Shown here one piece after another: positions 2,625-32,475 of a DNA stretch of 64,000 bases; position 1 is the first letter of the stretch; each line of letters begins with the position of its first letter. The notes below the pieces were generated by a model that searched no databases, was not told where the DNA came from, and worked only from the letters and a program-made list of their open reading frames with translations. Both the position numbers and the translations under genes were made by a program. The DNA comes from Escherichia phage REP1. The stretch lies in sequence record OQ174500.1; one strand, 5' to 3'.

Positions 2625-3152
2625 ATGAATGCTAAAGATATTTTCAACTTGGTAAACTACAATGATGGTAAATTTAAATCTGAAGCTCAAAGCAAGTTCT
2701 TTAATGATGTCTCAATCGGTGGTGAAATCACGGTTGATGGAGGACAAATTTACAAATCTCGTTGGAATTGGATCGTTATTATTGATGAGATTGGTATCGT
2801 AGAAATTTATAAAAATACGAATAAAAATCGTACATTACACTGGTCTCGTGATACTAACGAACAGTACAAAAAGGATAAAGCATCTAAATTATCTCGTGTA
2901 ACTCAAGAAGATATTGAGTTCATCAAGAAAGATATTTTGATGTATGATAACTTAATTGCTGAAGAGCAAGCTGTTATTGATAAATTTGATGAGATTAAAG
3001 CTTCTCGTGAAATTCCTGATTTTATGAAAGAATCAGTAAATGAACGATACACTCTCATTTCAGAGCGTATTGAAACTTACAAAAAGCAAAGAGCTGAACG
3101 CCAAAATACTCTTCGGAAGTTTGAAGAACGGTTAAAGACGGTACTCGCATAA
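2625..3152 (+). CDS. hypothetical protein
   Basis: 175 aa from ATG 2625 preceded by GGAGG; track start 2565 lies inside the promoter. Confidence 0.6.
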   Translation: MNAKDIFNLVNYNDGKFKSEAQSKFFNDVSIGGEITVDGGQIYKSRWNWIVIIDEIGIVEIYKNTNKNRTLHWSRDTNEQYKKDKASKLSRVTQEDIEFIKKDILMYDNLIAEEQAVIDKFDEIKASREIPDFMKESVNERYTLISERIETYKKQRAERQNTLRKFEERLKTVLA

Positions 3153-3622: not shown

Positions 3623-4510
3623 ATGTCAGTAGTAATTAATAATGTCAATGCAGTAATTAAATCTTTAGTTAATAAAAAATTGAATGAATGGACTGTACTT
3701 CGTCGTGGAGAGCCAGATAAATTTTTTCATAGATTTAACCCAACTTTGGATTTGAATGTTATTGACAGAGATGTTCATGCAGAAATTTTAGATAAGTTTA
3801 AAGTTGATATTGGATTTGGATTAGAAAAACATTTACAGCGAACAAACGGGTCTGGAATGGGTTTATCTAATCGCATCATGAAAGCCCTTAATAAAATTGG
3901 AGCATTGTCTCGCATTAACGCGAGTGAAATTCTTCGCAATTATAATAAAGGATATGACCTTTATGGTCGACTAATGCCGAAATTGTCATTCGATCAAATG
4001 ATTGCGGATTTGTGGGAAAATCAACGACGATTATTAGCATTAGGTGCTCGATTGGCTAAAGGTCTAGATAAACAAATGATTTTTAAGACCAATAATACAG
4101 AAGACCTTAAATGCTTTAAATTTAGTATTCGCGGAGATGATTATTACATCAGAGCTCGCTCTACAGATTATGTTAATATGGGACATCATCTCTGTTTAGC
4201 TTTTGAAGTTTTAAAAGAAACCGGAACATTAGAATATTCGTCTGGTGCAAAATGCCCGATTGGTTCAAGTTGTATTTTAATTTATCGCCCGGATGAATCC
4301 AGTTCATCTAAATTACCTACAAAACCTGTACCAGTTCGTAGTAACGAAAAACATTCTGAACAAATTGATTATTTTAATAAGCAAATTGAAGAGCTGAATA
4401 TTTCTATTCAACAGTATGACGATGAAATTTTCAGACTATCTGGATTGAGTAGTAAAGCTAAATCTGAGCGTGAAAAATTAATTAAAATTGTTGATTTACT
4501 TAAATCTTAA
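3623..4510 (+). CDS. hypothetical protein with C-terminal coiled-coil tail (array member 1 of 4)
   Basis: ATG 3623 after GAGGAAA RBS; C-terminal heptad-like amphipathic segment. Confidence 0.6.
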   Translation: MSVVINNVNAVIKSLVNKKLNEWTVLRRGEPDKFFHRFNPTLDLNVIDRDVHAEILDKFKVDIGFGLEKHLQRTNGSGMGLSNRIMKALNKIGALSRINASEILRNYNKGYDLYGRLMPKLSFDQMIADLWENQRRLLALGARLAKGLDKQMIFKTNNTEDLKCFKFSIRGDDYYIRARSTDYVNMGHHLCLAFEVLKETGTLEYSSGAKCPIGSSCILIYRPDESSSSKLPTKPVPVRSNEKHSEQIDYFNKQIEELNISIQQYDDEIFRLSGLSSKAKSEREKLIKIVDLLKS

Positions 4511-16946: not shown

Positions 16947-18149
16947 ATGAAAGTATGCATTTTTATGGCTCGAGGTCTTGAAGGTTGTGGCGTAACTAAA
17001 TTTTCTCTTGAGCAGCGTGATTGGTTTATTAAAAATGGTCATGAAGTAACTTTGGTTTATGCTAAAGATAAATCATTTACCCGTAATTGCGCGCATGATT
17101 ATAAATCATTTTCAATTCCGGTTTTATTGGCAAAAGAATACGATAAAACACTTAAACTGGTAAATGATTGTGATATTCTAATTATCAATTCAGTTCCTGC
17201 TACTTCGGTTGAAGAAGACACTATTAATAACTATAAAAAAATTATTGATAACATTAAACCTTCTGTTCGTGTTGTAGTTTATCAACATGACCATTCTTCT
17301 CTTTCTTTGCGTCGAAATTTGGGATTAGAAGAAACTGTTCGTCGAGCTGATGTTATTTTTAGCCATTCTGATAATGGTGATTTTAATAAAGTTCTGATGA
17401 AAGAATGGTATCCAGAAACTGTTTCTCTGTTTGATGATATTGAAGAAGCACCGACAGTATATAACTTTCAGCCTCCTATGGATATTGCGAAGGTTCGGTC
17501 AACATACTGGAAAGATGTTTCTGAAATTAACATGAATATCAACCGTTGGATTGGTCGTACGACTACATGGAAAGGTTTTTATCAGATGTTTGATTTTCAT
17601 GAAAAACATCTTAAACCTGCAGGACTAAGTACTATTATGGAAGGTCTGGAACGTTCTCCAGCGTTCATTCCCATTAAAGAAAAAGGAATTCCATACGAGT
17701 ATTATCGTCTTCATCAAGTAGACCAAATTAAAATTGCTCCTAATTTGCCAACGCAAATTCTTGACCGTTATGTAAATAGCGAAATGCTTGAACGTATGAG
17801 TAAATCCGGATTTGGTTATCAGCTGAGTAAGTTGGACAAAAAATATCTACAACGTTCTTTAGAATATACTCATCTCGAGCTTGGTGCATGTGGAACAATT
17901 CCGGTATTTTGGAAATCTACTGGCGAAAATTTAAAATTCCGTGTTGATAATACTCCTTTGACCTCGCATGATAGCGGTATCATTTGGTTTGATGAAAATG
18001 ACATGGAATCAACATTTGAACGTATTAAAGAACTGTCATCTGACCGAGCTCTTTATGACCGTGAGCGAGAAAAAGCATATGAATTTTTGTATCAGCATCA
18101 AGATTCAAGCTTCTGCTTTAAAGAACAGTTTGACATTATTACAAAATAA
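16947..18149 (+). CDS. agt: DNA alpha-glucosyltransferase
   Basis: 400 aa; MKVCIFMARGLEGCGVTKF... matches recalled T4 alpha-gt; position between 55 and 47. Confidence 0.85.
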   Translation: MKVCIFMARGLEGCGVTKFSLEQRDWFIKNGHEVTLVYAKDKSFTRNCAHDYKSFSIPVLLAKEYDKTLKLVNDCDILIINSVPATSVEEDTINNYKKIIDNIKPSVRVVVYQHDHSSLSLRRNLGLEETVRRADVIFSHSDNGDFNKVLMKEWYPETVSLFDDIEEAPTVYNFQPPMDIAKVRSTYWKDVSEINMNINRWIGRTTTWKGFYQMFDFHEKHLKPAGLSTIMEGLERSPAFIPIKEKGIPYEYYRLHQVDQIKIAPNLPTQILDRYVNSEMLERMSKSGFGYQLSKLDKKYLQRSLEYTHLELGACGTIPVFWKSTGENLKFRVDNTPLTSHDSGIIWFDENDMESTFERIKELSSDRALYDREREKAYEFLYQHQDSSFCFKEQFDIITK

Positions 18150-18325: not shown

Positions 18326-18949
18326 ATGAAAAAATATATAACTTATTTAACAATATATAGTGGAGATAAACTTCCTCCTTTTTATATTGGATCTACATCT
18401 TTAGATAGGCATTTAGCTGGATATCATGGATCAGTTTTATCTAAAAAGTATAAGAAAATTTATAATAAAGAACTTTCAGATAACCCGCATCTATTTGATT
18501 CATGCATTTTAGCTGAATTTGATACGCGTGAAGAAGCTATTAAATGCGAGCTATATTATCAACGATTGCATGATGCAGTTAAAAATCCATTATTCTTTAA
18601 TATGTCATATGCTGCTCCAAAAGGTTCATTTGGAAGAGATATTAAAGGACAAAATCATCCATTATATGGTTCTCATAATTGTAAAGGAAATATACATTCA
18701 CATGATCCATTAACAGGAAAATCTGCATTTTTACCTTATATTCCAGAAGGTTATGTAAAAGGAAGGTCAAATAAATTTAAAGCTTCATCACATAATAAAG
18801 GTAAAAAATGGTATAATAACGGAGTTAAGCAAATGTTATGTCATGAACCTCCTGGTCCTGAATGGACAAAAGGAAAAATTAAAGAACTGGTTTCAAAAGC
18901 AGCTAAATTAGGATGGAAAAGACACCATGAAAATACTAAACTTGGGTGA
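18326..18949 (+). CDS. free-standing GIY-YIG homing-endonuclease-like protein (seg-like)
   Basis: 207 aa; YITY...FYIGST N-terminal motif, conserved acidic ILAEF segment, repeated NUMOD-like G-x-H-x-K motifs; markedly AT-rich; 3' end overlaps gene 47 start. Confidence 0.6.
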   Translation: MKKYITYLTIYSGDKLPPFYIGSTSLDRHLAGYHGSVLSKKYKKIYNKELSDNPHLFDSCILAEFDTREEAIKCELYYQRLHDAVKNPLFFNMSYAAPKGSFGRDIKGQNHPLYGSHNCKGNIHSHDPLTGKSAFLPYIPEGYVKGRSNKFKASSHNKGKKWYNNGVKQMLCHEPPGPEWTKGKIKELVSKAAKLGWKRHHENTKLG

Positions 18950-28562: not shown

Positions 28563-28596
28563 ACAACTATCAGCTAATACGGATTTGGAGAATAAA

Positions 28597-28833
28597 ATGA
28601 AAATTGTTTATGGTTGCTTAGCAGTGTGTTTAGTTGCATTAGCAGCAGTTCCATTTGTTAGTGTTGAAAATGATACTCAACCTGTGATTGAATCTAGCAC
28701 CGTTATTCACACTAATGGTAAAATATCAGTTAAAATTGATGATAATCTTCATGTGAATACAAATGGATCTTTAGGTGTGCAAATGGGTAATACCTGCATA
28801 AGCACTACTGGAGTAATTACTACTTGCATTTGA
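28597..28833 (+). CDS. small secreted protein (signal-peptide-like N-terminus)
   Basis: 78 aa from ATG 28597; MKIVYGCLAVCLVALAAVPFVSVEN; track start 28585 is TTG. Confidence 0.55.
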   Translation: MKIVYGCLAVCLVALAAVPFVSVENDTQPVIESSTVIHTNGKISVKIDDNLHVNTNGSLGVQMGNTCISTTGVITTCI

Positions 28834-29636: not shown

Positions 29637-30377
29637 ATGATTAGTGACTCTATGACAGTTGAAGAAATCCGTCTTCATTTGGGGCTTGCATTAAAAGAAA
29701 AAGATTTCGTAGTTGATAAAACTGGTGTTAAAACTATTGAAATTATTGGCGCATCATTTGTAGCAGATGAACCGTTTATTTTTGGCGCTCTTAATGATGA
29801 ATACATTCAGCGTGAACTTGAATGGTATAAATCTAAAAGCTTGTTTGTTAAAGATATTCCAGGTGAAACACCAAAGATTTGGCAGCAGGTAGCATCTTCT
29901 AAAGGCGAAATTAACTCGAATTATGGTTGGGCTATTTGGTCAGAAGATAACTATGCCCAGTATGATATGTGTTTAGCTGAACTTGGTCAAAATCCTGATT
30001 CTCGACGTGGTATCATGATTTATACTCGTCCATCCATGCAATTTGATTACAATAAAGATGGTATGTCAGATTTCATGTGTACTAATACAGTACAGTACCT
30101 GATTCGTGATAAGAAAGTCAATGCAGTAGTAAGCATGCGCTCAAATGATGTGGTCTTCGGATTCCGTAATGATTATGCATGGCAAAAATACGTATTAGAT
30201 AAATTAGTATCTGATTTGAATGCCGGCGATTCAACTCGTCAGTATAAAGCAGGTTCTATTATATGGAATGTTGGAAGTCTTCATGTATATTCTCGTCATT
30301 TTTACTTGGTTGATCATTGGTGGAATACTGGCGAAACTCATATTGTGAAAAAAGATTATAACGGTGAGTGGAAATGA
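29637..30377 (+). CDS. 42: dCMP hydroxymethylase gp42
   Basis: 246 aa; thymidylate-synthase-like fold motifs; size equals T4 gp42. Confidence 0.85.
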   Translation: MISDSMTVEEIRLHLGLALKEKDFVVDKTGVKTIEIIGASFVADEPFIFGALNDEYIQRELEWYKSKSLFVKDIPGETPKIWQQVASSKGEINSNYGWAIWSEDNYAQYDMCLAELGQNPDSRRGIMIYTRPSMQFDYNKDGMSDFMCTNTVQYLIRDKKVNAVVSMRSNDVVFGFRNDYAWQKYVLDKLVSDLNAGDSTRQYKAGSIIWNVGSLHVYSRHFYLVDHWWNTGETHIVKKDYNGEWK

Positions 30378-31216
30378 TTCAATTCGTAATTCCAAGCTAT
30401 CAACGCGTAGGGGCAGTTTCTGCCCTTGATATGTTTCCGACTGATTATGAACCACATATTGTAGTGCGTGAACATGAAGAAAAAGCTTATCATGACGCTT
30501 ATGGGTCTAGAGTTAAAATTATAACTATTCCTGATGATGTAAACGGAATTGCCGGTACTCGTAAAGCAATTACTGATATGTATGCAGGTCAACGAATCTG
30601 GATGATTGACGATGATACTACTATTCGTATGAGTTCAATGCGAAAAAGAGATGATCGTCGTTGCGTAGATAAAGTCAATCAATTGACTCGTGAACAGTTC
30701 TATGAATTGATTCAATATGTTGAGGATGCCATGGATTGTGGGTATTATCATGGCCATGCTCGTCTACCTATTTTTAAAATTACTTCATCTTGGGGTAATT
30801 ATCGTGAAAATTCATATGGATTCACGAATACATGGTATGACCTCGGAAAACTTACGACAGAACAAATTGGGTATGGAAAAATTGATTTATGCGAAGATAT
30901 GTATGCATTTCTCAATTTAATTAATCAAGGTTATCCGCATTTGGCCTTGTTCAAATATCTGGTTGTATCTGGAAAAGCACAAGCTCCTGGCGGGTGCAGT
31001 TCAATTCGCAGTAATTCTAAACATAATAGAGCGCTTGAGCAGATCAATAGAGAGTTTCCAGAGCAAGCTCGTTGGAAAACTTCTAATATTGAAAAACGAA
31101 AATCGTTGGGTGAAGAAGACGAGCCATTAAAGGTTCTTCGTATGTGTGTTTCACGTAAAGAAAAATCAGAAGCATTTCATAAGTTTAATGCTATTCATCC
31201 AATAGCAGTTGATTAA
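30374..31216 (+). CDS. GT-A-type DNA glycosyltransferase at the beta-gt position (possibly beta-glucosyl-HMC alpha-glucosyltransferase)
   Basis: 280 aa from ATG 30374 (ATGA overlap with gene 42); DxD-type WMIDDDTTI motif; unrelated to recalled T4 beta-gt. Confidence 0.55.
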   Translation: MIQFVIPSYQRVGAVSALDMFPTDYEPHIVVREHEEKAYHDAYGSRVKIITIPDDVNGIAGTRKAITDMYAGQRIWMIDDDTTIRMSSMRKRDDRRCVDKVNQLTREQFYELIQYVEDAMDCGYYHGHARLPIFKITSSWGNYRENSYGFTNTWYDLGKLTTEQIGYGKIDLCEDMYAFLNLINQGYPHLALFKYLVVSGKAQAPGGCSSIRSNSKHNRALEQINREFPEQARWKTSNIEKRKSLGEEDEPLKVLRMCVSRKEKSEAFHKFNAIHPIAVD

Positions 31217-31293
31217 TGCCTAAATTTATTGTGTTATAATTACTCTATCTTTAACCAGTGAGGAAAATATAATGATGCCTATGGAAAAAATGA

Positions 31294-32475
31294 ATGTCTA
31301 TTGCAGATTTAAAATCCCGTTTGATTAAAGCTTCCACTTCTAAAATGACTGCTGAACTGACTACATCTAAATTCTTTAATGAAAAGGATGTAATCCGTAC
31401 AAAAATCCCAATGCTTAATATTGCTATTTCTGGTGCGATTGATGGCGGCATGCAGTCTGGTTTAACTATTTTCGCAGGGCCTTCTAAACACTTTAAATCA
31501 AATATGTCTTTGACTATGGTTGCGGCATATTTGAACAAATATCCTGACGCGGTTTGTCTATTCTATGATAGTGAATTTGGTATTACTCCAGCTTATTTGC
31601 GATCCATGGGAGTTGACCCGGAACGAGTAATTCATACGCCGATTCAGTCAGTTGAACAGCTGAAAATTGATATGGTGAACCAGCTTGAAGCTATTGAGCG
31701 TGGTGAAAAGGTTATTGTATTCATCGACTCAATCGGTAATATGGCTTCTAAGAAAGAAACGGAAGATGCCTTAAATGAAAAATCTGTGGCAGATATGACT
31801 CGTGCTAAATCACTGAAGTCATTATTCCGTATTGTTACTCCTTATTTTAGCATTAAAAATATTCCGTGCGTTGCGGTTAACCATACAATTGAAACAATTG
31901 AAATGTTTAGTAAAACCGTGATGACAGGTGGTACAGGCGTAATGTATTCGGCTGATACAGTATTCATTATCGGTAAGCGTCAGATTAAAGATGGTTCTGA
32001 TCTTCAGGGGTATCAATTTGTTCTAAATGTAGAAAAATCTCGTACCGTTAAAGAAAAAAGTAAATTCTTTATTGATGTTAAATTTGACGGTGGTATTGAT
32101 CCTTATTCTGGATTGCTAGATATGGCTCTTGAATTAGGATTTGTAGTAAAACCTAAAAATGGTTGGTATGCTCGTGAATTTCTTGACGAAGAAACCGGCG
32201 AGATGATTCGCGAAGAAAAATCTTGGCGTGCAAAAGATACCAACTGCACTACATTCTGGGGTCCTTTATTTAAGCATCAACCATTCCGAGATGCTATTAA
32301 ACGTGCTTATCAATTAGGTGCTATTGATAGTAATGAAATTGTTGAAGCTGAAGTTGATGAATTGATTAACTCAAAGGTTGAAAAATTTAAATCTCCAGAA
32401 AGTAAAAGTAAATCAGCAGCTGATTTAGAAACTGACCTCGAACAGTTAAGTGATATGGAAGAATTTAATGAATAA
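31294..32475 (+). CDS. uvsX: recombinase UvsX (RecA/Rad51-like)
   Basis: 393 aa; Walker A GPSKHFKS; near-identical to recalled T4 UvsX. Confidence 0.9.
   Translation: MSIADLKSRLIKASTSKMTAELTTSKFFNEKDVIRTKIPMLNIAISGAIDGGMQSGLTIFAGPSKHFKSNMSLTMVAAYLNKYPDAVCLFYDSEFGITPAYLRSMGVDPERVIHTPIQSVEQLKIDMVNQLEAIERGEKVIVFIDSIGNMASKKETEDALNEKSVADMTRAKSLKSLFRIVTPYFSIKNIPCVAVNHTIETIEMFSKTVMTGGTGVMYSADTVFIIGKRQIKDGSDLQGYQFVLNVEKSRTVKEKSKFFIDVKFDGGIDPYSGLLDMALELGFVVKPKNGWYAREFLDEETGEMIREEKSWRAKDTNCTTFWGPLFKHQPFRDAIKRAYQLGAIDSNEIVEAEVDELINSKVEKFKSPESKSKSAADLETDLEQLSDMEEFNE

Follow-up and report, generated by a model that had tools for sequence, protein, structure and literature searches.

Which glycosyltransferase does a T-even-like phage carry at the place where T4 has its beta-gt, and how far would that enzyme modify the phage DNA? 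The question is raised by a 64,000-nucleotide stretch of DNA from Escherichia phage REP1 (OQ174500.1), hereafter called the window, in which the initial annotation had placed a 280-aa protein between gene 42 and uvsX. We conclude that this protein is very probably a beta-glucosyl-HMC-alpha-glucosyltransferase of the T2/T6 type, i.e., an enzyme of GT-A fold that depends on a DxD motif and uses UDP-glucose. Enzymes with this activity are listed as EC 2.4.1.28, and the T2 and T6 genes were cloned in the early 1990s. The coordinates of the features discussed here are collected in Table 1.

Table 1. Features of the window that bear on the assignment of ba-gt
Feature	Coordinates	Strand	Basis
alpha-gt, DNA alpha-glucosyltransferase (GT-B)	16947..18149	+	Pfam PF11440, PDB 1XV5, PHROG 2888
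Gene 42, dCMP hydroxymethylase	29637..30377	+	PHROG 160, E 5.4e-67; annotated gene 42 at the aligned position in T2, T4T and T6
ba-gt (ggt, TAGT), beta-glucosyl-HMC-alpha-glucosyltransferase CDS, 280 aa	30374..31216	+	
ATGA, in which the ba-gt start overlaps the TGA stop of gene 42	30374..30377	+	Read from the sequence; same junction in T2 and T6
DDD codons (residues 79-81), DxD motif binding metal and nucleotide-sugar	30608..30616	+	Invariant in homologues; position in the model
uvsX recombinase, 3' flank of ba-gt	31294..32475	+	PHROG 97, E 7.4e-110; synteny with T2, T6 and Phaginator

The reading frame is real and intact, running from the ATG to a TAA through 280 codons with zero internal stops, and the two flanking genes named by the initial annotation were confirmed by PHROG matches and synteny. 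A mechanical list of open reading frames also offers a GTG start at 30368, two codons 5' of the ATG; the ATG agrees with the annotations of T2 and T6 (NC_054907). The overlap of this start codon with the stop of gene 42 makes translational coupling of the two genes probable. The encoded protein falls into PHROG 842 ('beta-glucosyl-HMC-alpha-glucosyltransferase') with an E value of 6.9e-89 over residues 1-275, and its score of 41.4 bits for the Pfam family PF20691 (TET-associated glycosyltransferase, TAGT) exceeds the gathering cut-off of 27.5 bits, with residues 3-207 aligned to positions 2-205 of the 205-position profile. By megablast, the gene was found at a nucleotide identity of at least 90% in 474 deposited phage genomes, the hosts being mostly Escherichia, Shigella, Yersinia and Salmonella, with identities of 98.2% to T2 and 98.9% to Shigella phage Phaginator. 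At the protein level, it differs from its counterparts by one residue in Phaginator, two in Solly, three in QOTSP and four in T2, and at five positions in T6 (NC_054907), in line with the earlier proposal of a T2/T6-like arrangement for adding a second glucose. The 24-kb stretch around the gene is 97-98% identical to many Tequatrovirus genomes, and the source of the window is an ordinary T-even-like coliphage.

The gene order 42, ba-gt, uvsX is the same in the window, T2, T6 and Phaginator; in T4T the order is 42, b-gt (340 aa), segA, uvsX, and no segA is present between ba-gt and uvsX in the window. This comparison with T4T agrees with the placement of the gene where T4 carries beta-gt, and TAGT has been described as syntenic with T4 beta-GT (PMC13390438). 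The product of the upstream gene matches the thymidylate-synthase/dCMP hydroxymethylase family. The T4-like alpha-gt that had been reported at 16947 was recovered both by Pfam PF11440 (E 1.8e-237) and by PDB 1XV5, the latter along its full length (residues 1-400, E 5.6e-258). Thus, the two enzymes that make the acceptor, those of gene 42 and alpha-gt, both accompany ba-gt in the same window. The combination of alpha-gt and ba-gt is the usual arrangement in T4-like coliphages and the majority state in the genus, so it is ordinary; the T4 pair of alpha-gt and beta-gt is the rare one, present in 6 of 753 phage genomes (PMC13216743).

Three further observations concern the surroundings of these genes. 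In T4T, about 25 nt (3095-3119) share 96% identity with the final codons of ba-gt and its stop in the window (31194-31218; AATAGCAGTTGATTAATG). This relic of the 3' end of ba-gt stands immediately upstream of, or at the start of, segA in a phage that has beta-gt instead of ba-gt, and its position suggests that segA moved with its flanks from a ba-gt-bearing phage and so may have come into the T4 lineage together with that flanking DNA. Directly 3' of alpha-gt in the window lies a homing-endonuclease ORF of 207 aa (18326-18949, +). It matches PHROG 314 (homing endonuclease) and, with an E value of 1.3e-94, PHROG 10820, which bears the label HNH endonuclease; its Pfam GIY-YIG score is 21.4 bits, just below the cut-off of 22.6. 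Probably this is a homing endonuclease of the seg type that has inserted itself in the interval from alpha-gt to gene 47. Finally, an 82-aa ORF with a hydrophobic N-terminus (28585-28833, +) is located between gene 43 (DNA polymerase) and imm.1; its PHROG match is 4189 (unknown function), Phaginator has it annotated as gp48, and the T4T annotation contains no CDS counterpart, the gap between 43 and imm.1 being approximately 240 nt shorter there.

The shared genomic slot, together with several GenBank records that call the orthologue 'b-gt' or 'putative beta-glucosyltransferase', might point to a divergent homologue of T4 beta-gt, which would put a beta-linked glucose directly on HMC. Homology to T4 beta-gt was rejected by BLASTP, with a best E value of 2.1, as the initial annotation had anticipated in finding no resemblance between the two proteins. 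The Pfam family of the window protein is PF20691 and not PF09198, which it did not match even at an E limit of 10; T4 beta-gt matches PF09198 at 8.7e-98. Likewise, PDB chains gave nothing below E 1.5, the predicted fold is GT-A rather than GT-B, and no beta-glucosyl-mdC was found by LC-MS in relatives (PMC13390438). This reading is already refuted by Pfam, BLASTP and the fold comparison, and its chances are vanishingly small. A tblastn search with T4 beta-gt for such a gene elsewhere within the 64-kb window gave a best E value of 1.1, and in the relatives none was present among the annotated features under the matches. What the T2/T6-type enzyme would have in common with T4 beta-gt (PF09198, GT-B, PDB 1JG7) is the slot after gene 42, the use of UDP-glucose and a substrate of HMC-containing phage DNA; the two are unrelated in sequence and differ in fold, and T4 beta-gt converts bare HMC to beta-glucosyl-HMC and does not act on alpha-glucosyl-HMC.

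The protein had also been described as a GT-A-type enzyme with a DDD (DxD) motif, and both parts of this description are supported by the alignment and the fold comparison. DDD 79-81 is the sole D-x-D in the protein. In an alignment of 10 sequences, comprising the window protein and nine homologues from the homologue search with identities from 98% down to 32%, this motif is invariant, as are P7, S8, Y9 and R11, where the first strand ends. AlphaFold2 gave a model with a mean pLDDT of 70 and a pTM of 0.72; prediction is good for the N-terminal half, which binds the nucleotide, as is evident from pLDDT values of 84-94 over residues 1-80, and values below 50 occur at residues 125-151 and 203-211. 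The model is thus moderately confident, and the acceptor-binding half is therefore poorly defined in it. In this model, DDD comes directly after the strand at residues 74-77, the canonical GT-A position. The fold as modeled is GT-A, with the conserved DxD after strand 4, and not GT-B, and the T6 enzyme has likewise been modeled as GT-A with AlphaFold3 (PMC13216743). A solved structure of a relative was not found by sequence, the search of PDB chains giving no match below E 1.5. Among the cellular GT2-type GT-A enzymes BcsA (9FMV), TarP (6H1J) and RmlT (8BZ4), identity among these three is 8-16%, and enzymes of this type have a polysaccharide or teichoic acid as acceptor, whereas that of the ba-gt product would be a sugar on DNA.

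Altogether, the assignment has its basis in orthology, fold, motif, synteny, the intact reading frame and the partner genes found alongside, and membership of the gene in the T2/T6 ba-gt group holds for every feature testable in silico. The pathway proposed from this assignment would run in three steps. The product of gene 42 would supply hydroxymethyl-dCMP and thereby HMC in the phage DNA; the alpha-gt product (16947) would then glucosylate roughly three quarters of these HMC residues in alpha linkage; and the ba-gt product would add a second glucose, linked beta-1,6 to the first, to give gentiobiosyl-HMC. Such a pathway would leave the phage with no beta-glucosyl-HMC and with some HMC bare. 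We infer the catalysis itself, i.e., beta-1,6 addition of the glucose of UDP-glucose to alpha-glucosyl-HMC in DNA, and its extent from close relatives and the literature. TAGT of T2 and T6 makes 5-gentiobiosylmethylcytosine by adding glucose to HMC that is already alpha-glucosylated (PMC13216743), and HPLC/MS of ten Tequatrovirus phages with alpha-GT and TAGT and no beta-GT detected hmdC, alpha-glucosyl-mdC and alpha-gentiobiosyl-mdC (PMC13390438).

The initial annotation had further expected an effect on modification-dependent defence, an expectation that accords with published genetics and enzymology. In T6 delta-ba-gt, only alpha-glucosyl-hmC was reported, and this mutant shows increased susceptibility to the glycosylase Brig1 (PMC11078745). 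The glucosyl hydrolase BapA freed glucose from T6 delta-g-gt DNA but little if any from the DNA of wild-type T6 (bioRxiv 10.64898/2026.02.25.707755). Conversion of alpha-glucosyl-HMC to gentiobiosyl-HMC would remove the substrate of defences that read alpha-glucosyl-HMC, Brig1 being an example.

The Pfam TAGT family is broad, and a member with another donor or acceptor, e.g., one acting on bare HMC or transferring another sugar, has to be weighed, as proposed for solitary TAGT homologues of other phages; a TAGT homologue with neither alpha-GT nor beta-GT is carried by 288 of 753 phage genomes (PMC13216743). The window protein, however, is nearly identical to enzymes of phages that have been analysed by LC-MS or genetics, and alpha-gt co-occurs with ba-gt, which makes another donor or acceptor very improbable here.

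[quoted passage not shown] Gentiobiosyl-HMC amounts to approximately 5% in T2 and 72% in T6 (bioRxiv 10.64898/2026.02.25.707755; PMC13390438). Phages EL, BGP and Geo contain hmdC, glucosyl and gentiobiosyl species at roughly 1:2:2, with about 40% of the modified C gentiobiosylated, and Solly and QOTSP, both Tequatrovirus phages from the Durham Collection, contain about one-third 5hmC and two-thirds alpha-gentiobiosyl-mdC by HPLC/MS (PMC13390438). Because near-identical enzymes give such different gentiobiosyl fractions, presence of the gene alone does not fix the extent, and a literature search on the cause of the difference between T2 and T6, and on the original cloning, yielded no readable source besides those cited here.

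The alleles differ at few places. The window gene shares with those of T2 and T6 the product length of 280 aa, the ATGA overlap, the position between gene 42 and uvsX, the alpha-gt partner and the DDD motif of the family, which reads DD in the NC_054907 record. Compared to the T2 enzyme, the window protein has R11 where T2 has H, H40 (Y in T2), V47 (A) and P251 (S); compared to that of T6 (NC_054907), it has H40 (N in T6), V47 (A), D55 (G) and R106 (H), in addition to DDD for DD. The differences from Solly, at the same locus, are H40Y and V47A, and those from QOTSP are H40Y, V47A and D24N, each at a family-variable position; at H40 and V47 the window protein departs from most relatives. The T2 enzyme (LC348380) equals that of Solly plus R11H and P251S, the two codons corresponding to window positions 30404-30406 and 31124-31126.

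The same enzyme could nonetheless have low activity or low expression, as in T2, in which case the virion DNA would be mostly mono-alpha-glucosylated with a few percent of gentiobiosyl-HMC. The T2 protein differs at only four residues and yet is associated with a reported level of about 5%, the extent varies among relatives, and a terminator-like hairpin inside the 5' end of ba-gt (30408-30428) could limit expression. Against this, the window protein has R11 and P251, the sole two residues that separate T2 from the high-gentiobiosyl Solly, and in the family R11 is invariant and P251 is conserved at 90% or more in an alignment reaching down to 32% identity; the hairpin does not discriminate, because it is also present in T6 and T2. 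We consider weak activity or expression unlikely. Since the allele is closest to those of Solly and QOTSP and lacks the T2-specific R11H and P251S changes, a high gentiobiosyl fraction is predicted, and with moderate confidence we expect about two-thirds gentiobiosyl-HMC in the virion DNA of this phage rather than the 5% or so of T2.

R11 adjoins strand 1 of the nucleotide-binding fold. It is conceivable, although we hold the idea only tentatively, that the T2 enzyme is hypomorphic owing to R11H, P251S or both, which would explain the long-known contrast between the T2 and T6 levels. The exact 70-nt T2 allele with R11H was found in 8 records of GenBank phages, seven of T2 and one of SV76, and IMG/VR gave 0 matches with H11 and 3 with R11. 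The rarity of the T2 allele is suggestive support for the R11H idea, the numbers being small.

The hairpin mentioned above, GGGGCAG-TTT-CTGCCCT, is rich in G+C. It lies at 30408-30428 (+) within codons 12-18 of ba-gt, gene 42 having ended about 30 nt earlier, and was the sole terminator-like match in the scan. T2 and T6 conserve it, and the features that the GenBank record of DalCa lists where the first 70 nt of its ba-gt lie include a terminator. The hairpin could act as an attenuator of read-through into ba-gt from gene 42, although the local fold is not better than that of shuffles, with a z of -0.94 for the 91-nt stretch that contains it. Promoter-like sites around ba-gt numbered 15 against 8.6 ± 2.8 expected, these being consensus-level matches.

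T6 is represented in GenBank by two independent records, each with its own apparent lesion in ba-gt; neither lesion is present in the window gene. In MH550421, codon 10 is TAG (3951-3953, -, of the compared locus, corresponding to window 30401-30403), and the protein is annotated from M21 as 261 aa; this codon is CAA in the window and T2 and CAG in NC_054907. In NC_054907/AP018814, an in-frame deletion of 3 nt near position 335 of the compared locus (window 30608-30616) turns DDD into DD, and the protein of this record, YP_010067197.1, served as the T6 TAGT reference for a published homologue search (PMC13216743). Because T6 is the classical high-gentiobiosyl phage, each lesion may reflect a sequencing error, a variant that is tolerated, or a loss-of-function mutation confined to the stock sequenced.

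The gene itself is already known as that of the T2/T6 second-glucose enzyme, the arrangement is described in published work, and nothing in the identification is new; the only addition to the known facts is the prediction of gentiobiosyl extent from the allele, and the importance of the finding is limited to annotation and phenotype prediction. With regard to annotation, many orthologues are labelled 'hypothetical protein', 'beta-glucosyltransferase' or 'b-gt' in GenBank, and consistent naming of ba-gt across these records would help. With regard to phenotype, by analogy with the characterized relatives, the virion DNA is expected to be free of beta-glucosyl-HMC and to contain gentiobiosyl-HMC and alpha-glucosyl-HMC, with part of the HMC bare. 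Reduced exposure to Brig1-like glycosylases that read alpha-glucosyl-HMC and resistance to glucose removal by BapA are predicted; GmrSD/BrxU-type enzymes are predicted to be still effective against the phage, as are defences specific for 5hmC (e.g., Brig3), since part of the HMC would stay bare. If the proposal for R11H and P251S is true, the gentiobiosyl level of any Tequatrovirus would be readable from its ba-gt sequence, with the phage studied here predicted to be high.
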